Shown here piece by piece: positions 5,770 through 25,945 of a stretch of DNA of 25,945 bases. The translations under genes and the position numbers were made by a program. The number at the start of each line of letters is the position of its first letter. Position 1 is the first letter of the stretch. Source of the stretch: a virus (Duplodnaviria; Caudoviricetes). The DNA lies in the IMG/VR virus record IMGVR_UViG_3300037502_002581, positions 1-25,945 of that record; one strand, 5' to 3'. A model generated the notes under the pieces. That model was not told where the DNA came from. It saw only the letters and a list, made by a program, of their open reading frames with translations, and searched no databases.

Positions 5770-7647
5770 CTATTCATCATCCCAAGGAGCTTTTTCTTCT
5801 ACTTCAAAGAAGTCCAATTTTTTATTAAGTTTAGTCCAGCCATATTCTTTGTTAGGGTTATCTGATTCACCATAAAATCTTTTGCTTTTTATTTCAAAAT
5901 ATACACCTACTGATTTGTCCTGATAGCCTAAAGGTCTATTTTTAAACAAATCTATATAGCAATCAAATATCTCAATTCCTTCTTCCTGTGCTTGTTCAAA
6001 TTCTTTTCTAGTTGTTCTGTGAATTGCTATAACATAATGGGCAAGATTTGTAATATCTCCACTCCCTGCTACGTCTAGCTTTGTAAGTCTTTGTATTGTT
6101 TGTGTTTTTCTAGGATGAGCTACTAAATGCACTACTGCATTGAATTTTCTTGCAAATCTGATAAGCTCTTTTACGAAATCCTTTTGTTTTGAGTATTTTT
6201 CAAATTCGCTGCATTCAAGGTCAATCATCATAAGATTATCTAATATAAAATTCTTAACTCCATGCTTTCTTGCAAGTTCTTCCATTTTTTTCAAAATGCT
6301 TGAAGCTCTATAGTCTAAATCATTGTCATAAACAAATATATTGCCTTTATACCACTCTCGCATAACTTCTTTTATTTCTCTTGGCACTCTATGGGTTTTT
6401 GGAGCATTAGGACCGTTGTCTATTTCCTCTACATATTCGGGTCCTGCCATTGGATACTCTATCCATGACCTTAATTGTTGCTTTGTAAGTTCGCCGCTGA
6501 ATATAAATGTTTTATAACCTTGTTCCAAAGGCTCGCATACACAAACTTGATTTATGAATGTTGATTTGCCCGACCCATTTATTCCTGTAATCACATTAAC
6601 TGTTCCTAAAAAGAATCCATATATCCATTTGTCTAGCCCGTTTATACCTGATTTAATTTTTTCAGCTCTGTTTATGTCCAAATCTTCAATGTCTGCCATG
6701 TCTATAACGTCGGTTATCGGAACTTCTTTTGCATTTTCTATTGCTTTATATACGCTTTCAGGACCTTCTTTGTATAGATGAATATTAATATCTTTGTATC
6801 TGCTTACTACGTATTTGCAACGCCATTCCCCAAGCCTTGGCACCACTTCTTTTCTCATTTTTTCGCCAGCTTCATCGTTATCAGACCAAATAATTATTTC
6901 ATCAAATTGTTCTAGCCAATCCCAGTTATACTCTATCCAGTGATAATTATTGGCTCCAAAAGGTACTGATACAACATTTTTCCATCCTGATTCAATTACT
7001 GCTAATCTATCTATTTCACCTTCGCATATTAAAAGTGGTTTGCTTGTATTAACCTTGTCCATACCATAAAGGATTGGAACTGTATCGGCGTTCTTTTGGC
7101 ACCATGTCTTGTTATCGCTTTTTTTAAGTTTCCTTGCGGGTCTATATTTAACTAATAAAAGCTGCCCATATTGGTCTCTATACTCAAATACAATGTTGCC
7201 TTTGCTATCTTCCTTAACCCCTGCATAATCTATTGTTGCCTTACTAATTCCTCTTAGTTTTAAGTATTTTTCTATTTTACTTATAGATTTGTTTTCCTCG
7301 GCAATTGGGTATCTATATTCTTTTTTTCTATTGCTTGCTATTTCTGTTTCAAAATCATAAACTTCTCCAACTTCATTAAATAATCTTTCAACTGCTTCTA
7401 TAAAGTTAAGTCCTTCATGTTCTGTGTAATAATCTATAATGTCATAAGTCCTGCCGCATCCAAAACATTTAAAACTGTGTGCTTTTTTATTCCATATAAA
7501 GCTTGGTGTATCTTCGCTATGAAATGGACATAAACCTTTTAATTGTCTTCCATTCCATTTTTGTATATTTAATCCACTTGCTATTATCTCTGCAGCTCTT
7601 GGTCCTAAACTTGCTTTTGCTTTTTCTATTAAGTTTTTATTGATCAA
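5770..7647 (-). CDS. Bifunctional primase-helicase (CHC2 Zn finger + TOPRIM + SF4 helicase; T7 gp4/Twinkle-like architecture)
   Basis: CPFH..D.PSF...CFGCG; ICEGEID and WSDNDEAG (TOPRIM); GINGSGKST Walker A, LDNL, HPRK. Confidence 0.93.
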   Translation of the reverse strand: MINKNLIEKAKASLGPRAAEIIASGLNIQKWNGRQLKGLCPFHSEDTPSFIWNKKAHSFKCFGCGRTYDIIDYYTEHEGLNFIEAVERLFNEVGEVYDFETEIASNRKKEYRYPIAEENKSISKIEKYLKLRGISKATIDYAGVKEDSKGNIVFEYRDQYGQLLLVKYRPARKLKKSDNKTWCQKNADTVPILYGMDKVNTSKPLLICEGEIDRLAVIESGWKNVVSVPFGANNYHWIEYNWDWLEQFDEIIIWSDNDEAGEKMRKEVVPRLGEWRCKYVVSRYKDINIHLYKEGPESVYKAIENAKEVPITDVIDMADIEDLDINRAEKIKSGINGLDKWIYGFFLGTVNVITGINGSGKSTFINQVCVCEPLEQGYKTFIFSGELTKQQLRSWIEYPMAGPEYVEEIDNGPNAPKTHRVPREIKEVMREWYKGNIFVYDNDLDYRASSILKKMEELARKHGVKNFILDNLMMIDLECSEFEKYSKQKDFVKELIRFARKFNAVVHLVAHPRKTQTIQRLTKLDVAGSGDITNLAHYVIAIHRTTRKEFEQAQEEGIEIFDCYIDLFKNRPLGYQDKSVGVYFEIKSKRFYGESDNPNKEYGWTKLNKKLDFFEVEEKAPWDDE

Positions 7648-11463: not shown

Positions 11464-11688
11464 TCAAGCAGTATGTTCAGTACGATTTTTTCGGACATCG
11501 TCGGTAAAAAAAAGATATTCATAAGGTTTTTGGAAAAAATCAATTATTTTGTCAATTTCAGATTTTTTCCATTCAGTTTGTCCGTTTAACCTTTCATAAG
11601 TAGTTGTACGATTCAAGTTAATTATTTTGGCAAATTCAGGTATTGAAATATTTTTTCTTGCTAATTCTGCTCTTATATTTGGATACAT
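11464..11688 (-). CDS. Cro-like HTH (XRE) regulator
   Basis: YPNIRAELARKNISIPEFAKII.L.RTT.YERLNG.TEW; divergent from the repressor. Confidence 0.9.
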   Translation of the reverse strand: MYPNIRAELARKNISIPEFAKIINLNRTTTYERLNGQTEWKKSEIDKIIDFFQKPYEYLFFTDDVRKNRTEHTA

Positions 11689-11714
11689 TTAAGTTCCTCC
11701 TTCCAATTTGCTTT

Positions 11715-11837
11715 GTCCACATATTTCGTACTGTTACTTATTATTATAGTATGCAATTTTCGGAATGTCAATACATTTTTTCGGAAAAAATATTTATATT
11801 TTTGAGAATATCGGACTTGTGCTTGGAATACTCGGAA
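11715..11837. promoter_or_regulatory. Five 17-bp repressor operator sites (consensus about GTCCGA-N5-TCGGAC)
   Basis: Sites start at 11715, 11749, 11770, 11800 and 11821; the TCGGA/TCGTA right half is conserved; a sixth site lies at 11480-11496. Confidence 0.7.
11743..11771 (-). promoter_or_regulatory. Lytic (cro) promoter, perfect sigma-A consensus
   Basis: Minus-strand TTGACA (11771-66), 17 bp, TATAAT (11748-43). Confidence 0.9.
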
Positions 11838-11840
11838 ATT

Positions 11841-11849
11841 TGGTATAAT
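11841..11849 (+). promoter_or_regulatory. Repressor promoter, extended -10
   Basis: TGGTATAAT upstream of the GAGGGGTG RBS; weak -35. Confidence 0.7.
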
Positions 11850-11872
11850 TAAAATTAAAGAGGGGTGATTAT

Positions 11873-12223
11873 ATGAATATTGGAGATAGATTAAAAAAAT
11901 TAAGACTAGAAAAAGGGTTAACTATTAGGGAAGTTGCTAAGATATTTAATATAAGCAAATCAACTGTAAGTGATTACGAAAGAGGAAGAACAACTCCTAA
12001 TTATGAATTATTAATTAAAATGGCCGATTATTTCAATGTTACTACAGATTACCTATTAGGCTTAACCGATGAAAGAAATATATATAAAACTGTTCCTAAG
12101 GAAGTTCCAAAGATTTTAAGAGAATTAGGAACAAAATATATAGGATTTGCTAAAGATTTGAAAGACGCAGAGCTAACAGAGGAAGAAATAAAAGACATGA
12201 TAGAGTATATGAAAAAAGTCTAA
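11873..12223 (+). CDS. CI/ImmR-like XRE immunity repressor (no peptidase domain)
   Basis: IGDRLKKLRLEKGLT..EVA....ISKSTVSDYERG...P....LIKMADYFNVTTDYLLG; only credible + strand gene. Confidence 0.93.
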   Translation: MNIGDRLKKLRLEKGLTIREVAKIFNISKSTVSDYERGRTTPNYELLIKMADYFNVTTDYLLGLTDERNIYKTVPKEVPKILRELGTKYIGFAKDLKDAELTEEEIKDMIEYMKKV

Positions 12224-12291
12224 TAACCTAGAGGCAATATTAGCCGGAGAATTTGAAGAAATAAAAGACATGATAGAGTATATGAAAAAAG
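12182..12291 (+). repeat. Perfect 37-bp direct repeat x2 with a 36-bp spacer
   Basis: GAAGAAATAAAAGACATGATAGAGTATATGAAAAAAG at 12182-12218 and 12255-12291. Confidence 0.95.
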
Positions 12292-12316
12292 AGTAGGCAC
12301 CTGTTATACCTACTCT
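12285..12316 (-). terminator. Intrinsic terminator closing the accessory operon
   Basis: Minus strand AGAGTAGGTAT-AACAG-GTGCCTACTCT followed by a T run. Confidence 0.75.
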
Positions 12317-12337
12317 ATATAATTCAATAATCATGGC

Positions 12338-12529
12338 TTAATTATCTTTAGATATATGTCTTAGTGCTTGGTTTTCTACTACTACCCATGTTCTCCCAAT
12401 TTGTTCTTTGTATCTATCTTCAAGTTTAACAATAATTATATTTCTCTTATAATGATTTAAATTGTATTTATCGGCTAGATCCTGCAAAGGTATCCAGCCT
12501 TTTTTTAGACATTTATACATAGCAATCAT
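12338..12529 (-). CDS. Small winged-HTH-like protein
   Basis: IPLQDLADKYNL helix pair plus QIGRTWVV wing; overlaps the MTase stop. Confidence 0.55.
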   Translation of the reverse strand: MIAMYKCLKKGWIPLQDLADKYNLNHYKRNIIIVKLEDRYKEQIGRTWVVVENQALRHISKDN

Positions 12530-13181
12530 CCTTTTTTAATTTTGTGTAAGAACCGCCGCACTTTACAATACTTTCAAGCAACAGCGATAATCTTTTGTGA
12601 TTTAATTCAGTTCCAACAAATCTTTTTCCGTTTCTATATGCATATAACCCAACTAATCCAGTACCCATGCACAAATCTCCTATACAATTATAATCTTCAT
12701 TCTCACATACCCATTTAATAATATCTTCTTCATCCATATTATCAAGAGGTAATTTTTTTCTTTTATTACTTCCTCTAATTACATAACAAAACCTATCTTT
12801 TTTATGATAATAAGTACTATTATAGAATGTTACATATTTATATCTGCTTTTCATTTCTAAAATAAATTCTGCTAGATATTCCTTTCCTATCTCTATATAA
12901 CAAGTTTTAGGACTTATTTCGTCGATACATTCAAACAAACGTTTGTAAAATTTTTCAAAACTTGTTTGCTTATCTGTTCTTTCTGCTTTTGTATAGAATG
13001 TGTTTAAGTTGCCTAAATTCCAAGGCGGGTCTACAAATATTACATCTGCATTAAGCATTATGTTTGGTAATGGATCAAATATATTATGGACCTTTACCAT
13101 GCTGCCATTATCAAATATTACTGTTTCATCTTGGTTTATAGGATGCCTTTTAAAAGCATCCCCATAATTCCATTTAGCCAT
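12513..13181 (-). CDS. Beta-class amino (m6A/m4C) DNA methyltransferase, compact
   Basis: Motif IV VIFVDPPW precedes SAM-binding motif I IGDLCMGTG...RFVGTEL. Confidence 0.8.
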   Translation of the reverse strand: MAKWNYGDAFKRHPINQDETVIFDNGSMVKVHNIFDPLPNIMLNADVIFVDPPWNLGNLNTFYTKAERTDKQTSFEKFYKRLFECIDEISPKTCYIEIGKEYLAEFILEMKSRYKYVTFYNSTYYHKKDRFCYVIRGSNKRKKLPLDNMDEEDIIKWVCENEDYNCIGDLCMGTGLVGLYAYRNGKRFVGTELNHKRLSLLLESIVKCGGSYTKLKKDDCYV

Positions 13182-13710
13182 GATTTTTCACCTCCACCAT
13201 TTCCCATGATTTTGAATAAGCTTGATTCTTGAATAATTCAGCTATGCCAGTTATCTGTTTAAGTCTATATACTTCTTCTAATTCCATTCCTAAATGTTTT
13301 GCTATATCTTCATCTTCCATACCTTGTTCTACTAGCGATTGAACCAAATCCCCCATTAGTTCTACTTGATGAACCCCTCTAGCTCTATTAAATTGCACTG
13401 TAGCTGCCATTCTTTTCTTTAAATCGTGTTTTAGAATAACAACAGGTATTTGGTCCACTTCAAGCCATTCTTTTAATATTGTGTACCTATGAAAACCGTC
13501 AATAACAATATATTCGTCCATATCCTCATCATAGATAACCACTATTGGAAAACAAAAGCCATTATCTATTATGGATTGCTGCAAAAGCTCCATATTGTTT
13601 CTAGGCACATTATTAGGATTATAATTATTTGCTCTTACCTTTTCAATTGGTACCAATACTACATCCATACAAGGTAAATCAATATACCCTTTTTTGCTTT
13701 TAAGTTTCAT
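13174..13710 (-). CDS. ibrB: IbrB-like ParB/Srx N-terminal domain protein
   Basis: ANNYNPN.V....M.LL..SI...GF..PIVV, VIDGFHR, RMAATVQFNRARGVH, C-terminal HTH; ATG at 13710 coupled (TAATG) to the upstream gene. Confidence 0.85.
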   Translation of the reverse strand: MKLKSKKGYIDLPCMDVVLVPIEKVRANNYNPNNVPRNNMELLQQSIIDNGFCFPIVVIYDEDMDEYIVIDGFHRYTILKEWLEVDQIPVVILKHDLKKRMAATVQFNRARGVHQVELMGDLVQSLVEQGMEDEDIAKHLGMELEEVYRLKQITGIAELFKNQAYSKSWEMVEVKNHG

Positions 13711-14825
13711 TATAAAATCCTCCTCCATTTTTCTATAGTTTCTAATCTAGGATCCGGTTTATTATCAACCGGTAAATTATTTTCATAATCATTAAGTATT
13801 AGTTGTCTACATTGTTGTCTAGCAACATAATCATTATCAAGATGCTTAGAGAATCTTTTTTCAAAGATATGTTTCCTAGTTTCATCAGGATAAGTTTTGA
13901 GAAGGAAATCTCTATATTCTCTCCAGTTTTTAAAATTCTTAGGTAATTTTCTTACCTTTAACATCTTGCTATCTTTGCCATATAGATTACCTATGCTCAT
14001 TCCATTAATTCTTTTAAGCAATCTATCATATGTTTTTGGCTCAAATTCAGGTAATTCTACTAATGCCTTGAAAGATTTCTCGTGTATCAAGCTAGATACT
14101 CTTATCTCTTGTAGTCCCATGCCCTTCTTCCACATGTAATCATATATTTTGGAATACCTAAGTTTTTCATCATAGATATATCGCCAAACATCATGAAAGT
14201 TCCAATCATATATAGGGTAGAATGATGCTGAACCATTTCCTATGTCAGTCCCCCAAAATACTCCATTTACTGGATTTTTTGATACTGCCCTCCATCTGTT
14301 CATACTTTCAGTTGCCCTTAATCCTACTAAAAAAGCTGTATTAGGTCTGCTATTTTGGAAGTTATCTAAAACTGCGTAAAAATCAAGTCCTATTTTCTTA
14401 TTTCTGATTTTTTCTTTTTTCTCATCCCAAGGCTTGTGCCAAATAGCATCTTTCCTTTTGCTTCTCATCCAAATCTTGTGTTTGCCCTTTTCCCAGCACT
14501 TCAAATAAGGGTCTTTGTATGAAGTTGCGTTTGTAAGATTAAACTCTATCTGTAACCATAACTTAATAGTATTTTCAGGATACATATTCATTATATAGTC
14601 TACTTGCTTGATTGTACTATCATATACAACTTCTTCATCAAGAAAGAATATGCCTATTTTCCTATTTCTTTTATTAGCTTCTTTAAGTGCTAAATGGGCC
14701 AAAACAGTACTATCTTTTCCGCCACTAATTGATACAACTATATTTTCGTAGGTATCAAATATGTAGCTTATTCTTTCTTTAGCAGCTTCTAATACATTTT
14801 TTTTAGTATAAACTTGTTTTAGCAT
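13710..14825 (-). CDS. ibrA: IbrA-like PP-loop/PAPS-reductase-fold protein
   Basis: SISGGKDS PP-loop, FFLDEE, GLRATES..RW, YPIYDW...DVW, RVS; adjacent to the IbrB-like gene. Confidence 0.85.
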   Translation of the reverse strand: MLKQVYTKKNVLEAAKERISYIFDTYENIVVSISGGKDSTVLAHLALKEANKRNRKIGIFFLDEEVVYDSTIKQVDYIMNMYPENTIKLWLQIEFNLTNATSYKDPYLKCWEKGKHKIWMRSKRKDAIWHKPWDEKKEKIRNKKIGLDFYAVLDNFQNSRPNTAFLVGLRATESMNRWRAVSKNPVNGVFWGTDIGNGSASFYPIYDWNFHDVWRYIYDEKLRYSKIYDYMWKKGMGLQEIRVSSLIHEKSFKALVELPEFEPKTYDRLLKRINGMSIGNLYGKDSKMLKVRKLPKNFKNWREYRDFLLKTYPDETRKHIFEKRFSKHLDNDYVARQQCRQLILNDYENNLPVDNKPDPRLETIEKWRRIL

Positions 14826-15678
14826 AAAATTCACCTAGCCTTTCATTCCACTTGTTATAGTCCTCAAAATACCATTTGTCGGCACCTATACAAGTATTAA
14901 CGAATCTAACTTCATTAGTTCCAGTAGATTTAACATAATCAATAAATTCCAATCTCCTGCAAGGGAAATCAATAATCGTTAGGTTTCCTTGAGTTACATT
15001 TCTATACGTAACTATATTAGGTAATTTCAATCTTTGATTCCTTGCTAAATATATTTCATTCTCATGCAAAACAGCCTTTTTAAATTTGCCCAAGAAATTA
15101 TGAAGGTTTCTTGGAAGTGTATCAGGATCACTATTGCCTAAGTTGTCAAAATAATAATCTTTTTTCTTTAAATAGCTTTTCACCTGCCTTTCTGTCAGTT
15201 TTACATCTATTGACTTAAAAATTAAATCATTTCTTTTGACTAAAATATCTTCTTCATAAAGGTATTCCCATTTAAAGCCTTTTCCCCTGTATTTCCCTTT
15301 ATTCTGAAAGTCTAAAAGGATTAGAAAGTCCTTTTTTTCTTCAATAAAAGGGAAATATTCAAATATAATTTTGTGATCAGTTTGATTTAGGTAGTGATGG
15401 GCACAATTGTATGTCAGTTCACTTCTATTTTGAGTTCTCATACATTCATTGACAACTATTAGTACATCATCATCAATTTCCTCTAATAGCCTGTAGAATA
15501 CTGGATATTCAATAATATCCTTGTATTCTATATATTCAATCTCAACATTACCTTCTAAATCAAAAATATCTTCATGCTTTTGGAAGTAAAGAACAAAGAT
15601 TTTTCTTATATCGTTCTCTCTTAGATATTTGTTTAAAACTTCCTCCTTTTCTTTTTTATTCAGACCTACCCTTATCAT
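14803..15678 (-). CDS. Degenerate (probably inactive) SNF2-like paralogue
   Basis: Aligns by eye to the adjacent SNF2 N-lobe; Walker A lost, Walker B VNEC. Confidence 0.6.
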   Translation of the reverse strand: MIRVGLNKKEKEEVLNKYLRENDIRKIFVLYFQKHEDIFDLEGNVEIEYIEYKDIIEYPVFYRLLEEIDDDVLIVVNECMRTQNRSELTYNCAHHYLNQTDHKIIFEYFPFIEEKKDFLILLDFQNKGKYRGKGFKWEYLYEEDILVKRNDLIFKSIDVKLTERQVKSYLKKKDYYFDNLGNSDPDTLPRNLHNFLGKFKKAVLHENEIYLARNQRLKLPNIVTYRNVTQGNLTIIDFPCRRLEFIDYVKSTGTNEVRFVNTCIGADKWYFEDYNKWNERLGEFYAKTSLY

Positions 15679-17050
15679 CTAATAACTCCTTTCCATCTAT
15701 CCATTCTCTTATGTTGTCTTTCTTTCTTTCTATTTCCGACTTAAAAATATCGATTAGCCTTTCTTTTCTCCAAAGACATTTAAGAATCCTTTCATCAACA
15801 GTATAATTTGCACAAATGTCTATAATGTGAACATTGTTAGATTGTCCTATTCTATGAATACGGTCCTCTGATTGAGAACGTGTTGCGTAGTCCCAATCAT
15901 TAGAATAATATATTGCGTAATTACAAAACTGGAGATTCAAACCGTATCCTGCACACGTTTTATTTGCAACAAAAAACCTTGCATCATTTTCAAATTTTTC
16001 TACATTAAGACTTCTCTGTTTCTTAGATATTTTACCATGAAATTCTACAGCAGAATTTTGTCCATACTTCCGTTTCAATTCTGCTGATATATCTTCAATT
16101 TCATGGGTATATTTGCACCAAATAATAATCTTGCCGTCTAAACCTTCTAATACATCAAACAATGTTTTCATCCTTGGATTATCCATAGGATTTTTGAAAA
16201 TAGGTTCAGTCCTCATTTTCTCTTTCAACTTGCTTGTAATTTTCCTTCCACAAACAACGTGTTGTACAGCAGTAAGTAGTCTATATATTGTAGAAGGTTC
16301 AAACTCATCTACATCAGATAAAAATAAATCTTTTGTTTCTTCATATTCAAATCTCTGTTCTTCTGTAATATCAAAATAAACAGTATCATATGTTTTGGGA
16401 GGAAGGTCTAAACATTCAGATTTCAACACCTGATAAGTATAAGGTGCTATTTTTCTTGTTAGATAATCAGTTTCTAAACACCTTCTAATTTTTCCTGGAA
16501 TTTTTTCATCATATTCAAGATGATTAGCTGCAAAGCTCCAAAAAGACTTGTACCCTAATATTCTCCAATCAAGAATATACCATTGTGAGAATAAATCTTT
16601 TTCACATCTGCTAATCGGAGTTCCATTCAGTATTAATTTATATTTACAATGTTGAGCTAAACGGATAATATTTTCTGTCCTCTTGGCTCTGTGATTTTTT
16701 ACAAGATTACTTTCATCAACTATCAAATAGACATTTTTTTCTTGTACTAATTTAAGCAACTCACTATTAGTTCTTATGCTACTTGATAGCGTTTCAATGC
16801 CGCATATGGTTATCATGGATATATCATTACAATGTTTAAGCAAATCTCTTCTAAGGTTTCCTTTAACGCTGCAAGGACATAGCCATAACACATGGTCAAT
16901 TTTGCCTGCATTATATCGTTTAGCTGCTAACTCTAATGCAGTCCTAGTCTTACCTGTGCCCATCTCCATGTAGAGTGCTCCAACTTTTATCCGTTGGAGC
17001 TTCTCTACTGCTTTCTTTTGGTGCTCATAAAGTTTAGTTTTAAGTTGCAT
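15656..17050 (-). CDS. SNF2-family (SF2) ATPase/translocase
   Basis: LYEHQ, MEMGTGKT, LIVDESN, LNGTP, GYGLNLQ, QSEDRIHRIGQ; ATG at 17050 (TTG at 17056 possible). Confidence 0.93.
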   Translation of the reverse strand: MQLKTKLYEHQKKAVEKLQRIKVGALYMEMGTGKTRTALELAAKRYNAGKIDHVLWLCPCSVKGNLRRDLLKHCNDISMITICGIETLSSSIRTNSELLKLVQEKNVYLIVDESNLVKNHRAKRTENIIRLAQHCKYKLILNGTPISRCEKDLFSQWYILDWRILGYKSFWSFAANHLEYDEKIPGKIRRCLETDYLTRKIAPYTYQVLKSECLDLPPKTYDTVYFDITEEQRFEYEETKDLFLSDVDEFEPSTIYRLLTAVQHVVCGRKITSKLKEKMRTEPIFKNPMDNPRMKTLFDVLEGLDGKIIIWCKYTHEIEDISAELKRKYGQNSAVEFHGKISKKQRSLNVEKFENDARFFVANKTCAGYGLNLQFCNYAIYYSNDWDYATRSQSEDRIHRIGQSNNVHIIDICANYTVDERILKCLWRKERLIDIFKSEIERKKDNIREWIDGKELLDDKGRSE

Positions 17051-17183
17051 TATCAACCAGCTCCTGCAATCCTAAAAAACCAATTTCATCATCACAATCT
17101 TCGCATAAATAATATGTTTTACCTTTATATCGATATTTGAATAAAAAATCCTTCTTGTTATTGCAACATTCACATGATTTCAT
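17040..17183 (-). CDS. 47-aa zinc-finger protein (not in ORF track)
   Basis: MKSCECCNNKKDFLFKYRYKGKTYYLCEDCDDEIGFLGLQELVDNAT; GAGGGGG RBS; overlaps the SNF2 start. Confidence 0.75.
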   Translation of the reverse strand: MKSCECCNNKKDFLFKYRYKGKTYYLCEDCDDEIGFLGLQELVDNAT

Positions 17184-17185
17184 AT

Positions 17186-18310
17186 TTATTCCCCCTCATC
17201 AAATAAATCAGGTAATATACATGTATCTGATGATAATATTTCTTTAAGTCCGTCTTTTTTTTCATTTTCTTTTGCTTCAACAGGAGTAACAACTTCAGCT
17301 AACTTCAAAGATTCTTTATACCTTTCTATTGCCTTTATAGCACCTTTTGAGAATCTAAAACCATATAATTCAGCAAACTCTTGTACTTCATCTATGTGTT
17401 CTATTCTTACAACAACTCCACTATCCCACTTACTTCCTGGCAATTTTCTAGCCACATTATAAAGCCTATTGTTATGTCCTTGCCATTTAATTACTAGCCA
17501 CCCTTTGTATTTTCCTTCTTTCCTAATATATATCCATCTAGTACATTCTTCTTCATAATCTCCTTCAATAGCTTTTCTTCTGATTTCTTCATCTAATATG
17601 CAAATTGGAAATCCTTCATTAAGCAACTTATTTCCAAGCTCTGCTGCTCTATCTTCTACTGTACCGTTTGTATAATTTATCTCTCTTTTCCATACTCCGT
17701 TCCATTTGTAACCAAGGTCTTTAACTATTTTTATAAAATCATTATTTTTTTCAAAGTATACCTTTATTGTATCGTCTAGCACCTTTATTTCTACAACTGC
17801 ATTTGTAACTTTGTTTTCTGGATAAACTGTAGATTCTATTTTAATTTGTGTTTCTAAATCTTTTTCTTTGATTTCTTCTTCGGTAGGAATTTCTTTTTCT
17901 AAGTCCTCTAAAAGAAAGGTAAATAGTGTATACCTATTATTAATGTACCATGAAGCATTAGTTTTATTTTGAAGCATATAGTCTAAAATTTTGAATAATT
18001 CCATTTTAAGTGATTTATCATCTAGTCCATCAATTTCATTATTGAATTTCTCTATAAGTTGCTGTCTAATGGTATTAGCCCATACAACTTGTTTTTCAGT
18101 TCCTTGAAGTTCAGGAAGTTCCATTTCCTTAGCTTTCTCAGCGGCCTCTTTATTCTTTCTTTCCATTTCTTCTTCTAAATGTTTTTGATAACATTCAGGA
18201 CAAAGTCCTTCAAACCTTCTATCAGCTATCCATTGTCTATTTTTCACAGGTCCATAAACTTGTGTGCGTCCTTCATGTCCACATGAATAAGTGCCATAAT
18301 ACCAAGCCAT
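17186..18310 (-). CDS. Hypothetical protein with N-terminal Zn site (CGH...CPEC) and two HARP-like repeats
   Basis: 374-aa ORF, AGGAGG RBS, first gene of the operon; domain call is inference. Confidence 0.6.
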   Translation of the reverse strand: MAWYYGTYSCGHEGRTQVYGPVKNRQWIADRRFEGLCPECYQKHLEEEMERKNKEAAEKAKEMELPELQGTEKQVVWANTIRQQLIEKFNNEIDGLDDKSLKMELFKILDYMLQNKTNASWYINNRYTLFTFLLEDLEKEIPTEEEIKEKDLETQIKIESTVYPENKVTNAVVEIKVLDDTIKVYFEKNNDFIKIVKDLGYKWNGVWKREINYTNGTVEDRAAELGNKLLNEGFPICILDEEIRRKAIEGDYEEECTRWIYIRKEGKYKGWLVIKWQGHNNRLYNVARKLPGSKWDSGVVVRIEHIDEVQEFAELYGFRFSKGAIKAIERYKESLKLAEVVTPVEAKENEKKDGLKEILSSDTCILPDLFDEGE

Positions 18311-18342
18311 ATTTATACCTCCTTGTTTTATTTGTTGATTAT

Positions 18343-18371
18343 ATTATAATATAAAAAGATATAAATTTCAA
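18343..18371 (-). promoter_or_regulatory. Sigma-A-type promoter of the accessory operon
   Basis: Minus-strand TTGAAA (18371-66), 17 bp, TATAAT (18348-43); long A/T tract upstream. Confidence 0.8.
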
Positions 18372-18459
18372 GTATATTTTAGAAAATATTTTATATTTTA
18401 TTTTATTTTTTATTTTATATTTTTATTTTATGTTTTTATTCATATTATTATCCAAAAAC

Positions 18460-18497
18460 AAAAAAAGGTAGAATCTAGCGTGAAATCAGACTCTACC
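18460..18497 (-). terminator. Intrinsic terminator insulating the operon from late transcription
   Basis: Minus strand GGTAGAGTCT...AGATTCTACC followed by T7. Confidence 0.7.
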
Positions 18498-18617
18498 CTT
18501 TCATACGCTCACATTTGACTTCTATTGAATTTTTATTTGTTTATATACCTATACTATTATTAATGTTATTTTTGTTGATTATACGCCAATCTGACAAGCC
18601 TTTTCTGTTCAAAAAAT

Positions 18618-18646
18618 AAAAAAAGACTAGAGCCAAAGCCCTAGTC
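18618..18646 (-). terminator. Terminator at the end of the lysis cassette
   Basis: Minus strand GACTAGGGC-TTTG-GCTCTAGTC followed by T7; overlaps the holin stop. Confidence 0.8.
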
Positions 18647-18841
18647 GTCTTTGAAACCTGGATTTTCTGTTGTAGGATTGTTTATAATCCCTAGCAATAC
18701 CAATATTCCTAAAAATGATTTTACTATTTGGTTATAGTTTTCAGGTAATACATCTAATCCAAAAGCCTCAAGTAACATAGGTATAAACGCTGCTACTGCT
18801 ACCCATAAACCATAATTTTTTAGTCTTTTTTTATCTAACAT
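18641..18841 (-). CDS. Holin (small, two TM)
   Basis: RLKNYGLWVAV...LGILVLLGIINNPTT..GF.D, typical of Firmicutes phage holins. Confidence 0.88.
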   Translation of the reverse strand: MLDKKRLKNYGLWVAVAAFIPMLLEAFGLDVLPENYNQIVKSFLGILVLLGIINNPTTENPGFKDD

Positions 18842-18842
18842 A

Positions 18843-19064
18843 TTACTTCCCTCCTATACTTTGTATATACCAAAAGAAAAATCCCACAAGTGATGTAGCC
18901 CCTAGCATTACAAGAGCCTTTATCCAGGTTGTGAGACTTTCAATTTTCTCTATTAAACTTTGTATTTTCTCTCCCGTTCTAGCATCATTTATTTCAAGTT
19001 GGACAATACGTCTTTCATGGTCATCTAACTTTTCAACAATTTCATAATGTCTTTCACACGACAT
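18843..19064 (-). CDS. xhlA: XhlA-family (haemolysin-like) lysis protein
   Basis: Coiled coil KLDDHERRI..LE plus C-terminal TM LVGFFFWYIQ; start re-assigned to ATG at 19064. Confidence 0.8.
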   Translation of the reverse strand: MSCERHYEIVEKLDDHERRIVQLEINDARTGEKIQSLIEKIESLTTWIKALVMLGATSLVGFFFWYIQSIGGK

Positions 19065-19072
19065 ACTAACAC

Positions 19073-19531
19073 CTACTTTCTCATATCCCAAAAAGCATAT
19101 GTTCTTGTACCATTTCCATATCTGCCTTTTGGCCTACTGTCTAAATGAAAAAAAGTGTTATAGAATCCTACCCCTCCACCAAGGCCATCCTCTCTGCAAA
19201 GCTGAATCCACTTATTTTTTATGTTGTTTAGAAACTCATTCTGTCTCTCTTTCCCATATTTATAAAATTCATCAGGTAGTAGTATGTCTGAAGCTATTCC
19301 TTTCATATGCTTTGAATTTGGACTTCCACCGACTTTTTTATTATACTCTTGAGTTCTATATCCACTTGTAATTCTCATTGGCCTTTTATACCATTCTCTA
19401 AGTTTTTGTAACCGTTGAATATGATCTATTACATTAGCATTAATTAATACTTCTCCATTAGCTTTGCACTTAAATTCTACGATATTAAAATTCCTAGTTA
19501 TCTGTCCGTCAAACGCTTTTATGTCAAGCAT
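19073..19531 (-). CDS. Endolysin, peptidase M15 (Zn) family, catalytic domain only
   Basis: ITSGYRT..YN..VGG...SKHMKGIASDI...GVGFY..FFHLDSR; start re-assigned to ATG at 19531 behind AGGAGGTG. Confidence 0.88.
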   Translation of the reverse strand: MLDIKAFDGQITRNFNIVEFKCKANGEVLINANVIDHIQRLQKLREWYKRPMRITSGYRTQEYNKKVGGSPNSKHMKGIASDILLPDEFYKYGKERQNEFLNNIKNKWIQLCREDGLGGGVGFYNTFFHLDSRPKGRYGNGTRTYAFWDMRK

Positions 19532-19544
19532 GATTTCACCTCCT

Positions 19545-19583
19545 AAAAAAAGTGAAGAAGGGCATAAAAAATACACCCTTCTT
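19545..19583 (-). terminator. Terminator-like hairpin directly before the endolysin RBS
   Basis: Minus strand AAGAAGGGTGTA...TATGCCCTTCTT, then CAC, T7, AGGAGG. Confidence 0.6.
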
Positions 19584-19593
19584 TTCAGGTGCT

Positions 19594-19719
19594 TTACTGA
19601 GCTAGATGCCCTAATTCTAATGCTTCAAGTTCTGCTTTTACATCTGCTTTTAAAAGTTCAGGAACGTCAGCAAAAGTCTTATATCCTCGAATAATTAGAG
19701 TTACATATACTGTCACCAT
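19594..19719 (-). CDS. XkdX/CD1375-like small tail accessory protein
   Basis: [31 protein letters not shown]; GGAGGTG RBS before ATG at 19719. Confidence 0.8.
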
Positions 19720-19759
19720 AGTATCACCTCCAATCAATATAAAAAATACAAGTTTTAGT

Positions 19760-19873
19760 TTATTTAGCAGTTTCATTGTCCAAGAGCTCCTGTACTTCAG
19801 TTTTTAGATTAGCTGGAACATCATCAATGGTCTTTAAGCCTAATTTGATTAATTTATAATACACTTCTGCCAT
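19760..19873 (-). CDS. Second XkdX/CD1375-like protein, 37 aa (not in ORF track)
   Basis: [37 protein letters not shown]; AGGAGG RBS; TAATG coupling. Confidence 0.8.
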
Positions 19874-20103
19874 TATACTGTACCTCCTTGAAGTAATAAT
19901 AATTGCTCATAAACTTCTGTAAGAGCTAACATAGTACTAACATTCTCTTGCTCTAGTTGAGCATTTTTAGCTTTTAGTTCATCAATTTCAGCTTGTTTTT
20001 TAGCTATTTCTTCAGCAATCTTTCCTTCAACTAAAACTCTCATAGTAGGAGAGTTTTTCATTATTTCTTCATACATAGTAGGTGTATATTGTACTTCTGC
20101 CAT
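19873..20103 (-). CDS. Small tail-fibre-associated coiled-coil protein (XkdW-like position)
   Basis: ELKAKNAQLEQENVSTMLALTEVYEQLL; lies between the fibre gene and the XkdX-like genes. Confidence 0.7.
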   Translation of the reverse strand: MAEVQYTPTMYEEIMKNSPTMRVLVEGKIAEEIAKKQAEIDELKAKNAQLEQENVSTMLALTEVYEQLLLLQGGTV

Positions 20104-20117
20104 ATTTATCTACCTCC

Positions 20118-22409
20118 TTATTTCCATACATTGATTAATTCATTTAGCTTATCCCCTAACTCCTGTGTAGTTGCTGTAGAAGTATCAGGGATAGTTGATA
20201 AGGCATACATCCTAAGCTCTTTGTCGGCCAATGGAAGTAAAGTAACCCAAACGCTTCCTAACTCTTTCTGGAGCCTTCTTTGAACATCTAATAGTCCTGC
20301 TATTGTAGCTGCAGTATTAATTGGATAAGTAGCTTGTATAGTAGGTCCAGTTGTAAGCTCTTGTGGATAGTGATATATGATTTCATACTTTTTACCATAA
20401 GAAAGACCACCAATTGTGGTGGTGTCTACTTGTGAGTAATCAGCATCTATGTAACTGATACTGTCTCCATCTACTATTTTTTCTTTGACACTTTCTATGA
20501 AATTGATAGGATATTCGGTATGTGGGATAGTAATTTGACCATTGCTATCTGCTATAGCTTCAAATCGTATAGCTGGCTCAATTATGAATGTAGTTTCCTC
20601 ATCAAAGGTATATAAGTCCTCAATACCTTGAAGTTCATATATTTTCGGCTCTGCTAACTGATAAATTAACGTTTCTCCTGCAAATGTAGATTGTGCAGTT
20701 GCTAAATCCATAGTTCCTTTTTCAATTATAAAATATAAATAACCGTTACTACCTGTTGCAACTTTACCTATATTAGTTGCATTATCCCATTCACTTACTT
20801 TTAATTCAAACCTTCCATAAACATTAATTTGTCCTGTAACTTCATCAGAAAATTGCACAACATCGTTTGGTAACTGTACTTTTACTACGTCAACGTTTGT
20901 TGTGAAGGTTTCTACTGCTATAATGTCAGTAGATTGTAATGTATATTCATCACTAACCCTCTTAATTAACTTCCCATCATCACTAACTTCATCATTAACG
21001 CCGTTAGGAAGCGAGTGCAACCCGTCAACCCCGTCTGGTAGTGTGATATATGACACACTTTCTTTGTAGGGTTCGTAGGGTGTTGCTGTGGAGCCTTCTT
21101 CTAGTTGTAAATTTTTTATAGTTACTGTTCCTGTAGAGCGCCCATATATAAGAATATATGCTTTGTCGAAATAACTTGGGAATGTAATTGATTCTTCTGA
21201 AACTGACCCTGTAATCCCTTTATTAAATAATAGATTGCCATTTGAGTCATAAAGATTTATATATACCCTTTTAGTCGTTGCTGTTCCTGTTATGCTTTCC
21301 GCTGACAATGTAACTGTTTCACTATGTTTACAATTAATTGGTATTTTATATGAAACACCTGTTACTTTAAAATCAATTGTAATTTCATTATCTGAAACAT
21401 TGTTTACTACTACACCTGAATTATTTTCATTTATCCATCTACTATCTGTAAATGGGGGTATTCTATTCTTCCCAACACTCTTAATTCTGACGCTGTTTGT
21501 AGATTTAGTGCTGTTGACATACGAGTATTTTTTAAGTAAAGCATTAGTACCTTCGGCATATTCTTCTGATGTAATTTCATTTATCATAATGCCATCTACA
21601 TATCCATATTCTGTTTCATTACCTCTTACATTTATGCCTAAATTGAATTTAGTTGCAGTATCAAAATCAGAAGGTTGTATAACCAACCCTTGTCTATTGA
21701 ATGAAGTTTCTATAACATATTCTTTATTTAAATAACCCACATCATTTATAATATTAGCTCTTAATCTAATACCTGTAGATAAATTGCCATTTTTAACATA
21801 TGCAGATATTAAGTAATATTTTGAAGGGTCTAATAAACTTAATATGTCTCTGTATAATTCTCCACCTGTTTGACCTGCATTTAAAGTTATTTTTATCCCA
21901 TTATTACCAAATACTTTGTTAGTACTATCTAAAGAAACAGTAATGTTAATTTTATTAAATAAACTTGTATCCTCACAATCTCCATCACTACCAAGCAAGT
22001 TGGTATATGTCCTACCCTTCAATTCTACGCTAACTTGACCATACACAGTGTTCGCTATATGATGTATTCTATCTGAAATCGTGATTGTAGTTTTCTCAAC
22101 TGTATCTAATCTATTTTCTAAATCAGTAGTCCTCTTGTCAAGACTTTGTGTATCTGTTTGTAATTGCGATATATCACTTTCATTTTGAGTTACTCTAGTG
22201 TCAAGGTTTTGTGTATCTGTTTCTGCTTCATCTAATCTGTCCTTCAAGACTGTAAATGTTTTGCTTTTGACACTTGAATATCTAGAATCTACTATTTCTG
22301 TATTACTGTCTCCGGTTTGTCCTACTAAATTATCTACCCTATCTATCATATCATTTATTTTAGGATATGCTTCTTTTAACTTATCACTTGGTAAAAGTTT
22401 ATTACTCAA
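20118..22409 (-). CDS. Receptor-binding/tail fibre or upper-baseplate protein with carbohydrate-binding-like modules
   Basis: EIVDSR...F.VLKDRLD N-terminal motif, coiled coil, NLLG.DGDCE, QLEEGSTATPYEPY; follows Tal; TTG at 22409 behind GAGGTGA. Confidence 0.75.
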   Translation of the reverse strand: MSNKLLPSDKLKEAYPKINDMIDRVDNLVGQTGDSNTEIVDSRYSSVKSKTFTVLKDRLDEAETDTQNLDTRVTQNESDISQLQTDTQSLDKRTTDLENRLDTVEKTTITISDRIHHIANTVYGQVSVELKGRTYTNLLGSDGDCEDTSLFNKINITVSLDSTNKVFGNNGIKITLNAGQTGGELYRDILSLLDPSKYYLISAYVKNGNLSTGIRLRANIINDVGYLNKEYVIETSFNRQGLVIQPSDFDTATKFNLGINVRGNETEYGYVDGIMINEITSEEYAEGTNALLKKYSYVNSTKSTNSVRIKSVGKNRIPPFTDSRWINENNSGVVVNNVSDNEITIDFKVTGVSYKIPINCKHSETVTLSAESITGTATTKRVYINLYDSNGNLLFNKGITGSVSEESITFPSYFDKAYILIYGRSTGTVTIKNLQLEEGSTATPYEPYKESVSYITLPDGVDGLHSLPNGVNDEVSDDGKLIKRVSDEYTLQSTDIIAVETFTTNVDVVKVQLPNDVVQFSDEVTGQINVYGRFELKVSEWDNATNIGKVATGSNGYLYFIIEKGTMDLATAQSTFAGETLIYQLAEPKIYELQGIEDLYTFDEETTFIIEPAIRFEAIADSNGQITIPHTEYPINFIESVKEKIVDGDSISYIDADYSQVDTTTIGGLSYGKKYEIIYHYPQELTTGPTIQATYPINTAATIAGLLDVQRRLQKELGSVWVTLLPLADKELRMYALSTIPDTSTATTQELGDKLNELINVWK

Positions 22410-22419
22410 ATTATCACCT

Positions 22420-24240
22420 CTATTCTTTAGCAAAAGCTATATAGCTAATATCACAAGCATCTACATACCACCAATTTTGAAAATTAGCTGGTGTTACTGT
22501 TTTTACTCTTGCTCTTACTTTAAATCTTGCATTTACATAATCATATTCTAAAACTTCTACATTAATTGTCATTGTTGTAGTATTACCATCACCAGTTAAA
22601 TATCTCATTTGTGGAGCCCCTCTAAAGCTAGGAGTAACAATAAATTCCCTTCCAATAAAGTCAGGGTTAGTCAGCGTTATCCAAGCAATACCTATTCCTT
22701 GAGAGTCTAAAGTAGCCTCGTCTGGAACATTATCTACCCCTGAACTACTTCCACTCAAACTAGCAGTTCCACTTTCAAATAAATTAAGATAAACATATTC
22801 GTTACCATTGCTTAATATTTTCTTTTTAAAACCTTCTTCATCCATTATTGTTTGGCTTCCATTTCCATGATCTACTACAAAACCTGCATCAGTAAACGTT
22901 ATTCTAAGAAAATAGTTTTTACCTGCATCTTTCGTAAATCTAATTCCTTCGTTATCTATTAATATATATTGATTGGTATCTATTGTGTTATCTGTGTTTA
23001 GTTTATACACTTTTAATCCTTCACTATCCCATTTAAAAGCATTAGGATTGTCAGCGTTGCCTACAATACTAATTAAATTGGTCCATATGGTTCCTGATAC
23101 AATCTCATCTGCTACAAATCCATCGCCAGTACCGAATGTTCTCCATATCCAGTTACCACTTTGGTCTTTTTCATTACTAATTGCTAAAGTACCACCTAAA
23201 AGTCTTAGTGCCTTTGTTGCAAGTTGCTCGTCTTGATTATCTAGTATTAATATTCCGTTATTATCTGTTACCTTAACTGTTCCAAGTCCTGCCTTTAAGT
23301 CATTGTTAGCTGCATCAATTGTGCCTTCTAGTATGCTTGTAGATATTGTATTATTAGAATTTATCGCCTTTGCTCTATTCCATATATCTTTATAGTTTTT
23401 AACTTCATTTACAGTTTTTCTAATTTCAACGTTGTATGTGCTTATATCATCTTGAAAGTTGCTTAATATTACTTTTGAATTTCTCTTTTCAATAGGATTA
23501 TACTCATATTCAACAATTCTAGCTGCTATTTCTATACCCAATCCTTCATCAACAGGCTTTACTGTATCTCCAAGTCTTATAGTTTCAAGTGCTTTAAATT
23601 CATCTAATTCTTCAAGCTCTAAAAAATCAATTTCATAAATTACTTTAGGATTTCCTTCACTGTCTTTTTTAGTCCCATCTACAATATGCTTTATTCCCTT
23701 TAGGTTTTTACCTAATCTTATTTCTACACCATTATTGGCTCCTCGCATACTATATAAATTTACTGTGTATTTATCAAATTCAAGTTCGGCATCATAAGCC
23801 TGTGCTATATCAATGAGAAGTGCCCTTTTATTTATTTCCTGCTCGTCTCTTTGAAAAGTTTGAGTTCCTAAATCTTCAACTGTACCGACAGTAAATGGAG
23901 TTCCTTCTAAAGCATACTGTAGGGCTTCTGTAGCAGTAATGTTAGAGTAATCAAATAGAGTGTTTTCTTCTAGCAATTCATAACTTACTTGCTCGCAGTA
24001 TACACTGCATAAAAGTTTGTTGTTACTTGTTCTTTCTTTAGTATAAGTAACAATATTAAATAATTGATTTTTAATTTCTATTTGATTTCCATACTGTATA
24101 TAATCAGTTTTGAGTTCTTCAATTATAGCTATAAACGTAAATGTATAATCTCCATTAATTTTTTCTCTTATAGTAGCTTGGGAAACGTTGTTGAGTATTG
24201 CTAACTGTTTTCCTGATTTATCTTTTATAATTGGATACAA
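22420..24240 (-). CDS. Tal/baseplate hub (prophage tail endopeptidase-type) protein
   Basis: LAILNN....IREKING.YTFTF, IRLGKNLKGI, IRLGDTV..VDE.LGI, RTFGTGDGFVAD; follows Dit. Confidence 0.85.
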   Translation of the reverse strand: MYPIIKDKSGKQLAILNNVSQATIREKINGDYTFTFIAIIEELKTDYIQYGNQIEIKNQLFNIVTYTKERTSNNKLLCSVYCEQVSYELLEENTLFDYSNITATEALQYALEGTPFTVGTVEDLGTQTFQRDEQEINKRALLIDIAQAYDAELEFDKYTVNLYSMRGANNGVEIRLGKNLKGIKHIVDGTKKDSEGNPKVIYEIDFLELEELDEFKALETIRLGDTVKPVDEGLGIEIAARIVEYEYNPIEKRNSKVILSNFQDDISTYNVEIRKTVNEVKNYKDIWNRAKAINSNNTISTSILEGTIDAANNDLKAGLGTVKVTDNNGILILDNQDEQLATKALRLLGGTLAISNEKDQSGNWIWRTFGTGDGFVADEIVSGTIWTNLISIVGNADNPNAFKWDSEGLKVYKLNTDNTIDTNQYILIDNEGIRFTKDAGKNYFLRITFTDAGFVVDHGNGSQTIMDEEGFKKKILSNGNEYVYLNLFESGTASLSGSSSGVDNVPDEATLDSQGIGIAWITLTNPDFIGREFIVTPSFRGAPQMRYLTGDGNTTTMTINVEVLEYDYVNARFKVRARVKTVTPANFQNWWYVDACDISYIAFAKE

Positions 24241-24251
24241 TTTATCACCTT

Positions 24252-25052
24252 CTATAAGTAAGTATTTCTATAATTAAAAAACACATTTACGTTTAAATTA
24301 GTTCCATCTATCGTAAATGTGCTATCACCAACTGGTATTTTTACAAAGCTACCTGTAAAATCTATAAGTTTATTAACTTTTTCTCCGTATGCATCTATGG
24401 TATAACAAAGCATTTTTTCGCAGTCTACATAAACCTTCTCTGTTATGTTTTGAATTGTAAATCCTCCTGTAGAGTTTGAAACACTTATAGAATCTGCTGT
24501 TCCATCTATTTCTATTACTGGCATAGCTTCAAATGTACCTAAATTTGTTACTGTAGCCTCTTGGTATCCAGTTACATAGAAGTTATTTTCTAAATCATAT
24601 CCAACTGGAATATAAGAATATAAATAAACCTCACTATCAAGTATTACATTTTCATTTAAGTAAGTTGAATAAGCAAAAGGCTTAACTTTAAAAGTAAGGT
24701 TTAAAATATCAACAGAATTATCTATTTTAGTTGATATACCTACTAATCTACCAATATAGTATTTATCTGATTCATAATCTAAAATAAGCTGTCCTTCCTG
24801 ACTAAGCCACTGTGATATTTCTCTCATTTTTAATCTTCTTAATGTGAAATCAGATTCTATAAAAACACATTCAAGTTCAATTATTTTATCTTCATAACCA
24901 TTTTCAAATTTATATGAACCATGTCTATTAGGTACAACTTCCTCGACTATTCTTTTTTTAGCAAGTGGGGGAAGGTTTTTAGTTTTAATATAAATTCCAT
25001 ATTCGCTTGAATGTTTATCTATATTATCAGTTGTAAACCTAAATCCATACAT
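24252..25052 (-). CDS. Distal tail protein (Dit)
   Basis: HSSEYGI, VPNRHGS, WL...G.LI...E.DKYY, F.VKPFAY, N.GT..A.PVIEI; follows the tape measure gene. Confidence 0.88.
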   Translation of the reverse strand: MYGFRFTTDNIDKHSSEYGIYIKTKNLPPLAKKRIVEEVVPNRHGSYKFENGYEDKIIELECVFIESDFTLRRLKMREISQWLSQEGQLILDYESDKYYIGRLVGISTKIDNSVDILNLTFKVKPFAYSTYLNENVILDSEVYLYSYIPVGYDLENNFYVTGYQEATVTNLGTFEAMPVIEIDGTADSISVSNSTGGFTIQNITEKVYVDCEKMLCYTIDAYGEKVNKLIDFTGSFVKIPVGDSTFTIDGTNLNVNVFFNYRNTYL

Positions 25053-25945
25053 TAACTAACACCTGCCCCTCTAGTTGCTGAATTTTGAAGCATGTAAAGT
25101 TCTCTAGCAATTCTTTTTATATCTGCTTCTTCCCTAACTACTAAGCTTGAAATGTTAAAATTATTTATAATTCTTCCAAGTAAACTTTGTGTTTCTTCTG
25201 CTGTATATACTTTTTCTCCACCTTTAAAATTAACAAGTTCAGGTCCTTCTTCTCCTACTAAAGCTAATCCAGCTTTGGCATAATCTGTTCCAGTTGCATA
25301 TCCATTTCCAATCCATCCACCTGGCTCTTCATCCTCATCACTATCATCAACTGTCCTCATATTTCCATCGTCATCTATTATTGTGTGAGTACCATCTTCA
25401 TCGAATATATGATGTTCTCCTGTATCTGAGTTGTAATAGCTTTCTGAATCGTCATCATCACTACCGCCACCACTTGTTCTATATACACTATCACTTATTT
25501 TATCTCCAAAATACTTCTTTTGTTCGTTCAATTTAGATGTGGTGTTTTCTATCTCTTCTCCAAGTTCTGCCTGTGCTACTTGAAGCTCTAATAATCTGTT
25601 TCTATATTCTAGTGCTACACTAGATCCTTCTCCAAACTTTTCAATAGCTTTATTTAAAGCCTGTTCTGTTGCTTCAATTTCTATGTTTAGCAAATTATGT
25701 TTTTCTCTTTGAACTTCTAACTGCTTTGAAAGATCTTCTGAACTGTCAGCAACTATATCATTTTTTATCTTCCAAAGTTCATATTTATTTTCTATTATGC
25801 TTACTGTATTTCTAACATAGTTTTGTACTTTACCCAAAGCATCAGCTATCTTTGTTGCAAGATTTTCAGATGCATTTCTAACTTTATAAGCATTATTCTC
25901 AAGTCCTTTTGTGAACATGTCAACAAAATTAGGTGCCCATTTATC
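25052..25945 (-). CDS. Tape measure protein, C-terminal part (starts outside window)
   Basis: Frame open to the window edge (DKWAPNFVDMF...); GYATGT...GLALVGEEGPELV C-terminal motif. Confidence 0.88.
   Translation of the reverse strand, partial: DKWAPNFVDMFTKGLENNAYKVRNASENLATKIADALGKVQNYVRNTVSIIENKYELWKIKNDIVADSSEDLSKQLEVQREKHNLLNIEIEATEQALNKAIEKFGEGSSVALEYRNRLLELQVAQAELGEEIENTTSKLNEQKKYFGDKISDSVYRTSGGGSDDDDSESYYNSDTGEHHIFDEDGTHTIIDDDGNMRTVDDSDEDEEPGGWIGNGYATGTDYAKAGLALVGEEGPELVNFKGGEKVYTAEETQSLLGRIINNFNISSLVVREEADIKRIARELYMLQNSATRGAGVS

Follow-up and report, generated by a model that had tools for sequence, protein, structure and literature searches.

A widespread phage gene cassette with a fixed IbrA–IbrB–methyltransferase core and an exchangeable SNF2 or Csf front module

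Introduction

Which function do eight tightly packed genes serve between the lysis genes and the repressor gene of a tailed phage, and do they form one unit? The question is raised by IMG/VR virus record IMGVR_UViG_3300037502_002581, positions 1 to 25,945 of which (the window, i.e. the whole stretch of DNA analysed) are part of a low-GC tailed phage; the contig is partial. A sequence-only reading of the window had described these genes as a self-contained operon for translocase-coupled DNA modification. The cassette is found here to be a real, widespread and uncharacterised phage unit. Its genes do co-occur, as judged by a neighbourhood search; however, the unit is not made up of eight fixed genes but of a fixed four-gene core, encoding an inactive (dead) SNF2 protein, IbrA, IbrB and a methyltransferase, and an exchangeable front module, which is either gene 1 with an SNF2 gene or csf genes of type IV-B CRISPR-Cas. 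A motor-coupled role in DNA marking is the leading idea. Specifically, the cassette is predicted to be a mobile phage element that may act as a counter-defence machine, engaging unpaired DNA and chemically marking the phage genome; this reading is assigned a probability of about 0.45.

Conservation of the core and exchange of the front module

The eight open reading frames (ORFs) are co-oriented on the minus strand, span positions 12338–18310 and abut or overlap at their ends, in agreement with the earlier description. Relatives were gathered through gene 4, the gene for the dead SNF2 protein, to give 149 loci (one duplicate was dropped), which form 92 clusters when gene 4 is grouped at 90% identity. 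The core is complete in all 67 clusters with at least 2500 nucleotides (nt) downstream. Where the upstream sequence reaches 1400 nt or more (71 clusters), SNF2 is found in 57 clusters and csf in 13, never the two together, and one cluster lacks both; the respective numbers over all 92 clusters are 69 for SNF2, 14 for csf and 0 for both. When six loci were compared with NCBIfam models, csf1 and csf3 were found in each and csf2 in five, all with scores below the curated cut-offs, and the wider csf count used profiles built from those loci. Of the csf clusters, 13/14 have a second short cysH-like gene, vs 1/69 of the SNF2 clusters, and no mini-array was found in the 14 csf clusters. Both types of cassette are known from cultured hosts, the SNF2 type from Pelotomaculum propionicicum, Clostridium luticellarii and Anaerobacterium chartisolvens, the csf type from Caldicoprobacter algeriensis; bacterial genome contigs also carry the cassette.

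On a quick tree of IbrA proteins, the distribution of csf requires 7 changes, of which at least two are on well-supported branches, and a single csf clade was rejected (p-AU 0.0002), a result new in this analysis. Thus, the partner of the core was exchanged more than once.

Three near-identical relatives provide a further view of the cassette as a unit. Their cassettes are >99.5% identical to that of the window, their lysis genes only ~91% identical, and the sequences diverge from the window at position 12279. The eight genes thus behave as one unit. The end (3') of the repressor gene is found a second time, immediately ahead of the terminator of the cassette, as an exact direct repeat of 37 nt (12182–12218 and 12255–12291). 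This repeat may be a recombination scar, because the three relatives diverge inside its second copy.

Variation was also seen among the more distant loci. Just C-terminal SNF2 fragments lie ahead of an intact core in L004 and L027, which suggests that the core can persist when the front module decays. In four divergent loci (L046, L047, L052 and L053) the methyltransferase gene is upstream of gene 4, and two of these (L047 and L053) have neither SNF2 nor csf and are located beside capsid-like genes. One csf-type locus has a GNAT gene between the IbrB and methyltransferase genes (L045:12830–13264). A protein of ~175 amino acids is encoded near the cassette in 13/43 SNF2-type and 0/12 csf-type clusters (e.g. 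L004:9531–10064 and L065:13371–13889) and is absent from the cassette of the window; the L065 copy gave no Pfam or NCBIfam match.

SNF2 motor and dead SNF2 protein

The earlier assignments of genes 3 to 7 (SNF2, dead SNF2, IbrA, IbrB and methyltransferase) are supported by domains, by motifs and, for gene 4, by the fold. Gene 3 (15656–17056) encodes an SNF2-family ATPase with SNF2-rel and Helicase_C domains. Its motifs GKT (Walker A), DES (DExx), GTP (III) and QxxxRxxRxG (VI) are intact and are kept in 38–40 of 40 aligned rows.

Gene 4 (14803–15678) belongs to the core and encodes a shrunken SNF2-fold protein of 291 amino acids, which gave no family match in library scans yet has 465 homologues. 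In an alignment of 172 columns (E 2e-4), a deep profile of this protein matches gene 3 from a point past Walker A, which has been lost. When the profile was searched against the ORFs of the loci, the 22 best non-self matches were all gene 3 orthologues. The structural model has a pLDDT of 91.7, and the listed top-50 Foldseek matches are all SNF2-family or related SF2 ATPases. The Walker B position is occupied by N in 65 and by D in 53 of 120 rows. As judged by sequence and model together, gene 4 encodes a dead SNF2 protein without Walker A, and an adaptor role is predicted for it.

Some relatives have fused versions: P0129 combines genes 1, 3 and 4, while P0131, P0134 and L043 each combine genes 3 and 4. 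These fusions suggest that the three products form one complex, and the gene 1 product is the predicted partner of the SNF2 motor.

Gene 1 includes an AcrIE7-like domain

Gene 1 (17186–18310; 374 amino acids) opens the cassette. Its product has a Cys-rich N-terminus with conserved cysteines that form a putative zinc site, a helical domain at about residues 62–130, and two β-β-α-β-α units. The profile of the whole protein matches the anti-CRISPR proteins AcrIF23 and AcrIE7 in the PDB, and a profile of residues 60–135 matched no solved structures other than those of AcrIF23 (E 1.8e-6) and AcrIE7 (E 2e-4). The helical domains of all three proteins have the motif G[ST]EKQxxWA...IDNR. AcrIE7 binds single-stranded (ss) but not double-stranded DNA, and its ssDNA binding needs K6 and R49 (PMC12002350). 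In an alignment of 34 rows, which include some near-duplicates, K73 of gene 1 (kept in 32) aligns with K6 and R126 (kept in 28) with R49. Hence gene 1 includes an AcrIE7-like, putatively ssDNA-binding domain with the equivalents of K6 and R49 kept, which had not been noticed before this analysis. Of the 42 full-SNF2 clusters with at least 3 kb upstream, 38 have the domain, as against none of the 14 csf clusters.

In the model of the gene 1 product (pLDDT 89.6, pTM 0.59), the cysteines are part of an N-terminal hairpin, besides which there are the helical domain and two similar α/β units, which align with each other only at E 0.077. The protein had been called HARP-like. The predicted topology of its C-terminal half is compatible with that of HARP, but gene 1 has no Pfam match to HARP and the relationship was not confirmed by any search. 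The adjacent gene 2 (17040–17183; 47 amino acids) does include two CxxC motifs, consistent with the zinc finger proposed for it, but is not conserved: no orthologues beyond near-identical copies were found among the relatives.

IbrA, IbrB and the methyltransferase

The product of gene 5 (13710–14834) is an IbrA/YbdN-like PP-loop protein with PAPS_reduct and DUF3440 domains, both above the Pfam cut-offs, the motif SGGKDS and only two cysteines, one of which is kept in 49/51 rows. It is 28% identical to YbdN of E. coli; on the IbrA tree, the window-type proteins form a clade separate from YbdN (SH-aLRT 83). Gene 6 (13174–13728) encodes an IbrB/YbdM-like ParB/Srx protein, which is 41% identical to YbdM and has a ParB_N domain above the Pfam cut-off and the motif DGFHR. 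By eye, its C-terminal end includes a helical region resembling a helix-turn-helix (HTH).

Gene 7 (12513–13181) encodes a small protein, in which DPPW precedes the S-adenosylmethionine-binding motif DLCMG(T/R)G. This order is that of β-class enzymes, and the best solved relatives are DpnA-type (β-class) adenine methylases (E 3e-5). Compared with these, the target-recognition region of the gene 7 product is shorter by ~29 residues. From these features, gene 7 encodes a β-class amino-methyltransferase-like protein with a short target-recognition region. The motifs SGGKDS, DGFHR, DPPW and GKT are all present in the genes of the window and conserved in the relatives.

Regulation and genomic context

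A sigma-70-type promoter sequence (TTGAAA-17-TATAAT) is located on the minus strand at 18343–18371, 32 nt before gene 1. It had been proposed as the one promoter of all eight genes. However, the region has 54 promoter-like matches vs 49 in its shuffles, which is not above chance, and the IbrB gene includes a match that is equally good (11/12; TTGAAA-17-TATAAT) at 13618–13646. Because of this chance-level frequency and the internal match, a single promoter is not established by the window alone; the internal match could separately drive the methyltransferase gene and gene 8. In the relatives, a match of at least 10/12 occurs within 150 nt before gene 1 in 13/40, vs 6% of shuffles.

The terminators expected on both sides of the cassette are present as terminator-like hairpins on the minus strand. 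That on the upstream side (18467–18497), read from the letters, comprises a 10-bp stem, an 11-nt loop and a T run, and is predicted to insulate the cassette from the lysis genes. A hairpin scan revealed a second upstream hairpin (18625–18646) and, at the cassette end, a hairpin with a T run (12290–12316).

Gene 8 (12338–12529; 63 amino acids) occupies the terminal slot. It had been labelled as an HTH protein, and its score on a local HTH profile (HTH_17/HTH_59-like) is weak (3/500 shuffles score as high); it has no family match and no orthologues beyond near-identical copies. The relatives hold unrelated small proteins in this slot. Among 39 terminal genes, which were picked by eye from 61 candidates, 25 have a match at E≤0.05 to a family of HTH, ribbon-helix-helix (RHH) or AbrB type, with scores above the Pfam cut-offs in 14. 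The cassette thus ends in a replaceable regulator slot, also new in this analysis, and gene 8 is a predicted autoregulator. A promoter combined with a replaceable terminal HTH/RHH gene recalls acr-aca operons, in which Aca has a regulator role (10.64898/2026.07.27.740549).

The location given earlier, between the lysis cassette and the repressor, was borne out. Upstream of the cassette are the lysis and tail genes (18641–25945), among them the holin gene (18641–18841); downstream is the convergent repressor gene (11873–12223), part of the repressor and cro region (11464–12223), followed at lower coordinates by recombination and replication genes. The latter include a fused primase-helicase gene (5770–7647; CHC2 zinc finger, Toprim and DnaB-like) beside RecT and DUF3799 genes. 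Temperate phages often carry an integrase gene in this interval between lysis and repressor genes; in this partial contig, no integrase gene was found within 12223–18641. The immunity region (11873–12279) varies among near-identical phages: L003 differs from the window in its repressor and cro, and in L077 and L078 the repressor gene of the window is replaced by ~220 unrelated bases.

In the whole window, restriction palindromes are strongly avoided as compared with a Markov expectation over both strands. GATC occurs 26 times vs 139.5 expected and GAATTC 0 times vs 19.6, and GCGC, CGCG and CTTAAG are likewise strongly avoided.

Comparison with known systems

The gene set gave no system-level match in PADLOC or NCBIfam, consistent with the earlier view that it is not a named system. 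Literature searches revealed no description of it, though subscription papers were mostly outside their coverage and such work may exist; nor is it described in the available parts of PMC10853773, PMC12839542, PMC12707154, PMC13219725, bioRxiv 2023.08.24.554615, PMC8813620 and PMC4541368. A link of IbrAB-like pairs and a GNAT gene to adenine hypermodification, which the sequence-only reading had mentioned, was not found in those searches with the same coverage.

Like ibrA/ibrB and ybdN/ybdM of E. coli K-12, the cassette has a PAPS_reduct and DUF3440 gene overlapping a ParB-like gene; unlike ybdN/ybdM, the pair of the window type is always accompanied by the dead SNF2 and methyltransferase genes. 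An SNF2 gene also lies beside ibrAB in the cultured phages phiCs5676-1, CHPC1062 and FCV-1, together with gene 1 in phiCs5676-1, and in phiCs5676-1 and CHPC1062 the cluster has the shared position directly after the lysin gene. These clusters, known from annotation only, lack gene 4 and the methyltransferase gene, and their IbrAB proteins are more distant from those of the window. No SNF2 match was found in the stretches inspected of Gadjet and vB_BceS-M2.

The same core adjoins csf genes of type IV-B CRISPR-Cas (csf1, cas11, csf2, csf3 and a cysH-like gene) in 14/92 clusters; none of the eight genes of the window matched a cas gene, and the window itself is not of type IV-B. The searched passages of a type IV-B review (PMC8175902) include no occurrence of Ibr, ParB or methyltransferase. 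With AcrIE7/AcrIF23 the cassette has in common the helical domain, and its strong promoter sequence and small terminal gene for a putative DNA-binding protein resemble the layout of acr-aca operons. Unlike in AcrIE7 and AcrIF23, the domain is embedded in a 374-residue motor partner, for which an anti-CRISPR role is predicted only.

A PP-loop enzyme with a ParB-family partner is also found in Dnd/Ssp and type 4 BREX systems, and inactive SNF2-type domains are held by DndH and PglZ (PMC10853773, PMC12839542). Unlike these systems, the cassette has no cysteine cluster, desulfurase, DndD/E, SspC, BrxC or PglZ. Assignment to Dnd/Ssp was rejected, as the Fe-S and catalytic cysteines of DndC and the DndD/DndE or SspB/SspC partners are missing. 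BREX, DISARM, Zorya and Dpd gave only generic SNF2, PP-loop and methyltransferase matches far below the curated cut-offs. Mom of phage Mu, a phage-encoded, post-replicative anti-restriction marking activity, represents the function proposed for the cassette. Mom is a single GNAT using Gly-tRNA, and 6-NcmdA is credited to Mom alone (PMC13219725, in the available text of which ParB, Ibr and PAPS do not occur). No GNAT match was found among the eight genes, and this pathway was rejected.

Proposed mechanism and alternatives

The gene order, conservation, folds, intact catalytic motifs, natural fusions among genes 1, 3 and 4 and alternation of the front module with csf are established; the steps that follow are predicted. 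On entry of the phage DNA the strong promoter would fire, to be damped later by gene 8. The products of genes 1, 3 and 4 would make up a single motor complex: its AcrIE7-like domain would grip ssDNA in bubbles or R-loops, and its SNF2 part would move along duplex DNA. The dead SNF2 protein, as a docking piece, would hand the DNA to IbrA, IbrB and the methyltransferase. IbrA would then adenylate an acceptor and IbrB use or sense a nucleotide, while the methyltransferase, having little target-recognition surface, would methylate the opened strand. The resulting mark would block restriction or CRISPR nucleases. In other phages, a Csf complex would replace genes 1 and 3 as the opener or selector of nucleic acid. 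AMPylation of bound nucleic acid has been proposed for the cysteine-less CysH of type IV-B (PMC8175902); this idea is similar to the IbrA step and is counted in its support.

Several points weigh against this reading. The activities, the modified base and the phenotype are predictions from the genes. All co-occurrence counts are conditional on gene 4, through which the loci were collected, and the lineages are not independent. Binding of gene 4 to IbrA and IbrB is predicted from gene order only, and the Pfam score of gene 7 (25.1 bits) is below the cut-off of 26.7. AcrIF23 acts via residues 17–28, a Cas2/3-binding loop, and showed no DNA binding at the tested concentration (PMC9270243); that loop falls outside the part common with gene 1. 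Gene 1 occurs in L157 without SNF2 within 7 kb, and its first 130 residues are a stand-alone protein in Bifidobacterium phage BigBern1 (L158:5001–5411). A similar short protein is gp107 of Streptomyces phage Gilgamesh (hit H109, tblastn), and both proteins, with their Cys-rich start and AcrIE7-like domain, are candidate anti-CRISPRs. SNF2, IbrA and IbrB occur without gene 4 or the methyltransferase in 3/5 cultured phages inspected (the three above), and the E. coli chromosome carries ybdNM without the cassette partners. Finally, a broad anti-restriction mark should make avoidance of restriction palindromes less necessary; the cassette may be a recent arrival.

Counter-defence could also proceed without a DNA mark. 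The motor and the AcrIE7-like domain would then shield or rewind R-loops, the Csf version would soak up guide RNAs, and the targets of IbrA and the methyltransferase would be RNA, a small nucleotide signal or a defence protein of the host. The conserved ssDNA-binding residues of the Acr-like domain, the layout of promoter and terminal HTH/RHH gene, the restriction-site avoidance and the absence of mini-arrays from the csf clusters all agree with this, as does the guide-sponge role proposed for type IV-B (PMC8175902). It is nevertheless unlikely, as the nearest structures of the methyltransferase are DNA adenine methylases and as the dead SNF2 and ParB/Srx proteins of the core are left unexplained. 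More unlikely is a prophage-borne defence of the lysogen, in which the methyltransferase or IbrAB would mark self DNA and the SNF2 motor and IbrB would act on incoming phage. A moron position between lysis and immunity genes, an own promoter, the presence in bacterial genome contigs and the SNF2 or dead SNF2 domains of Zorya, DISARM, BREX and Dnd (PMC10853773, PMC12839542) are in its favour. However, PADLOC gave generic domain matches only, with none at the system level, and no recurrent nuclease or toxic effector was found among the common neighbours of the relatives. Flavobacterium phage FCV-1 has related SNF2-IbrAB genes, and neither an integrase nor a repressor nor lysogeny was found for FCL-2, an IbrAB phage of Flavobacterium, in the available text of PMC4541368. 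The AcrIE7/AcrIF23-like domain of gene 1 likewise favours counter-defence over defence of the lysogen.

The database annotation of IbrAB as 'co-activator of prophage gene expression' would fit control of transcription, with IbrAB co-activating phage genes, while complexes of promoter or polymerase would be remodelled by SNF2. RapA, for example, is an SNF2 protein that acts on polymerase, and the HTH-resembling end of IbrB agrees with such a role. It is improbable, since it does not account for the fixed methyltransferase, the intact PP-loop and the swap with Csf. Least probable is auxiliary sulfur metabolism or phosphorothioation, with IbrA as a PAPS reductase or DndC equivalent. The PAPS_reduct domain, the PHROG label, a short DndC match at IbrA residues 168–225 in the PADLOC scan and the one well-kept cysteine point that way. 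Opposed to it are the presence of only two cysteines, NCBIfam scores of 20 bits vs a cut-off of 290 for DndC and 36 vs 154 for CysH, and the absence of any DndD- or DndE-like gene from the cassette.

Significance

A bolder form of the DNA-marking reading, itself doubtful, is that of a new counter-defence class, in which one modifying core (dead SNF2 adaptor, IbrA adenylyltransferase, IbrB and methyltransferase) would be aimed either by an SNF2 motor with an anti-CRISPR-type ssDNA clamp or by a Csf ribonucleoprotein. If so, type IV-B would be a module that targets the modification of nucleic acids, and AcrIE7 and AcrIF23 would be freed pieces of such a machine. IbrA/IbrB (YbdN/YbdM) and type IV-B with its CysH-like partner would both be tied to one testable core and an anti-CRISPR fold. 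The cassette would then point to a new DNA mark or to a new way in which phages blunt R-loop-based immunity.

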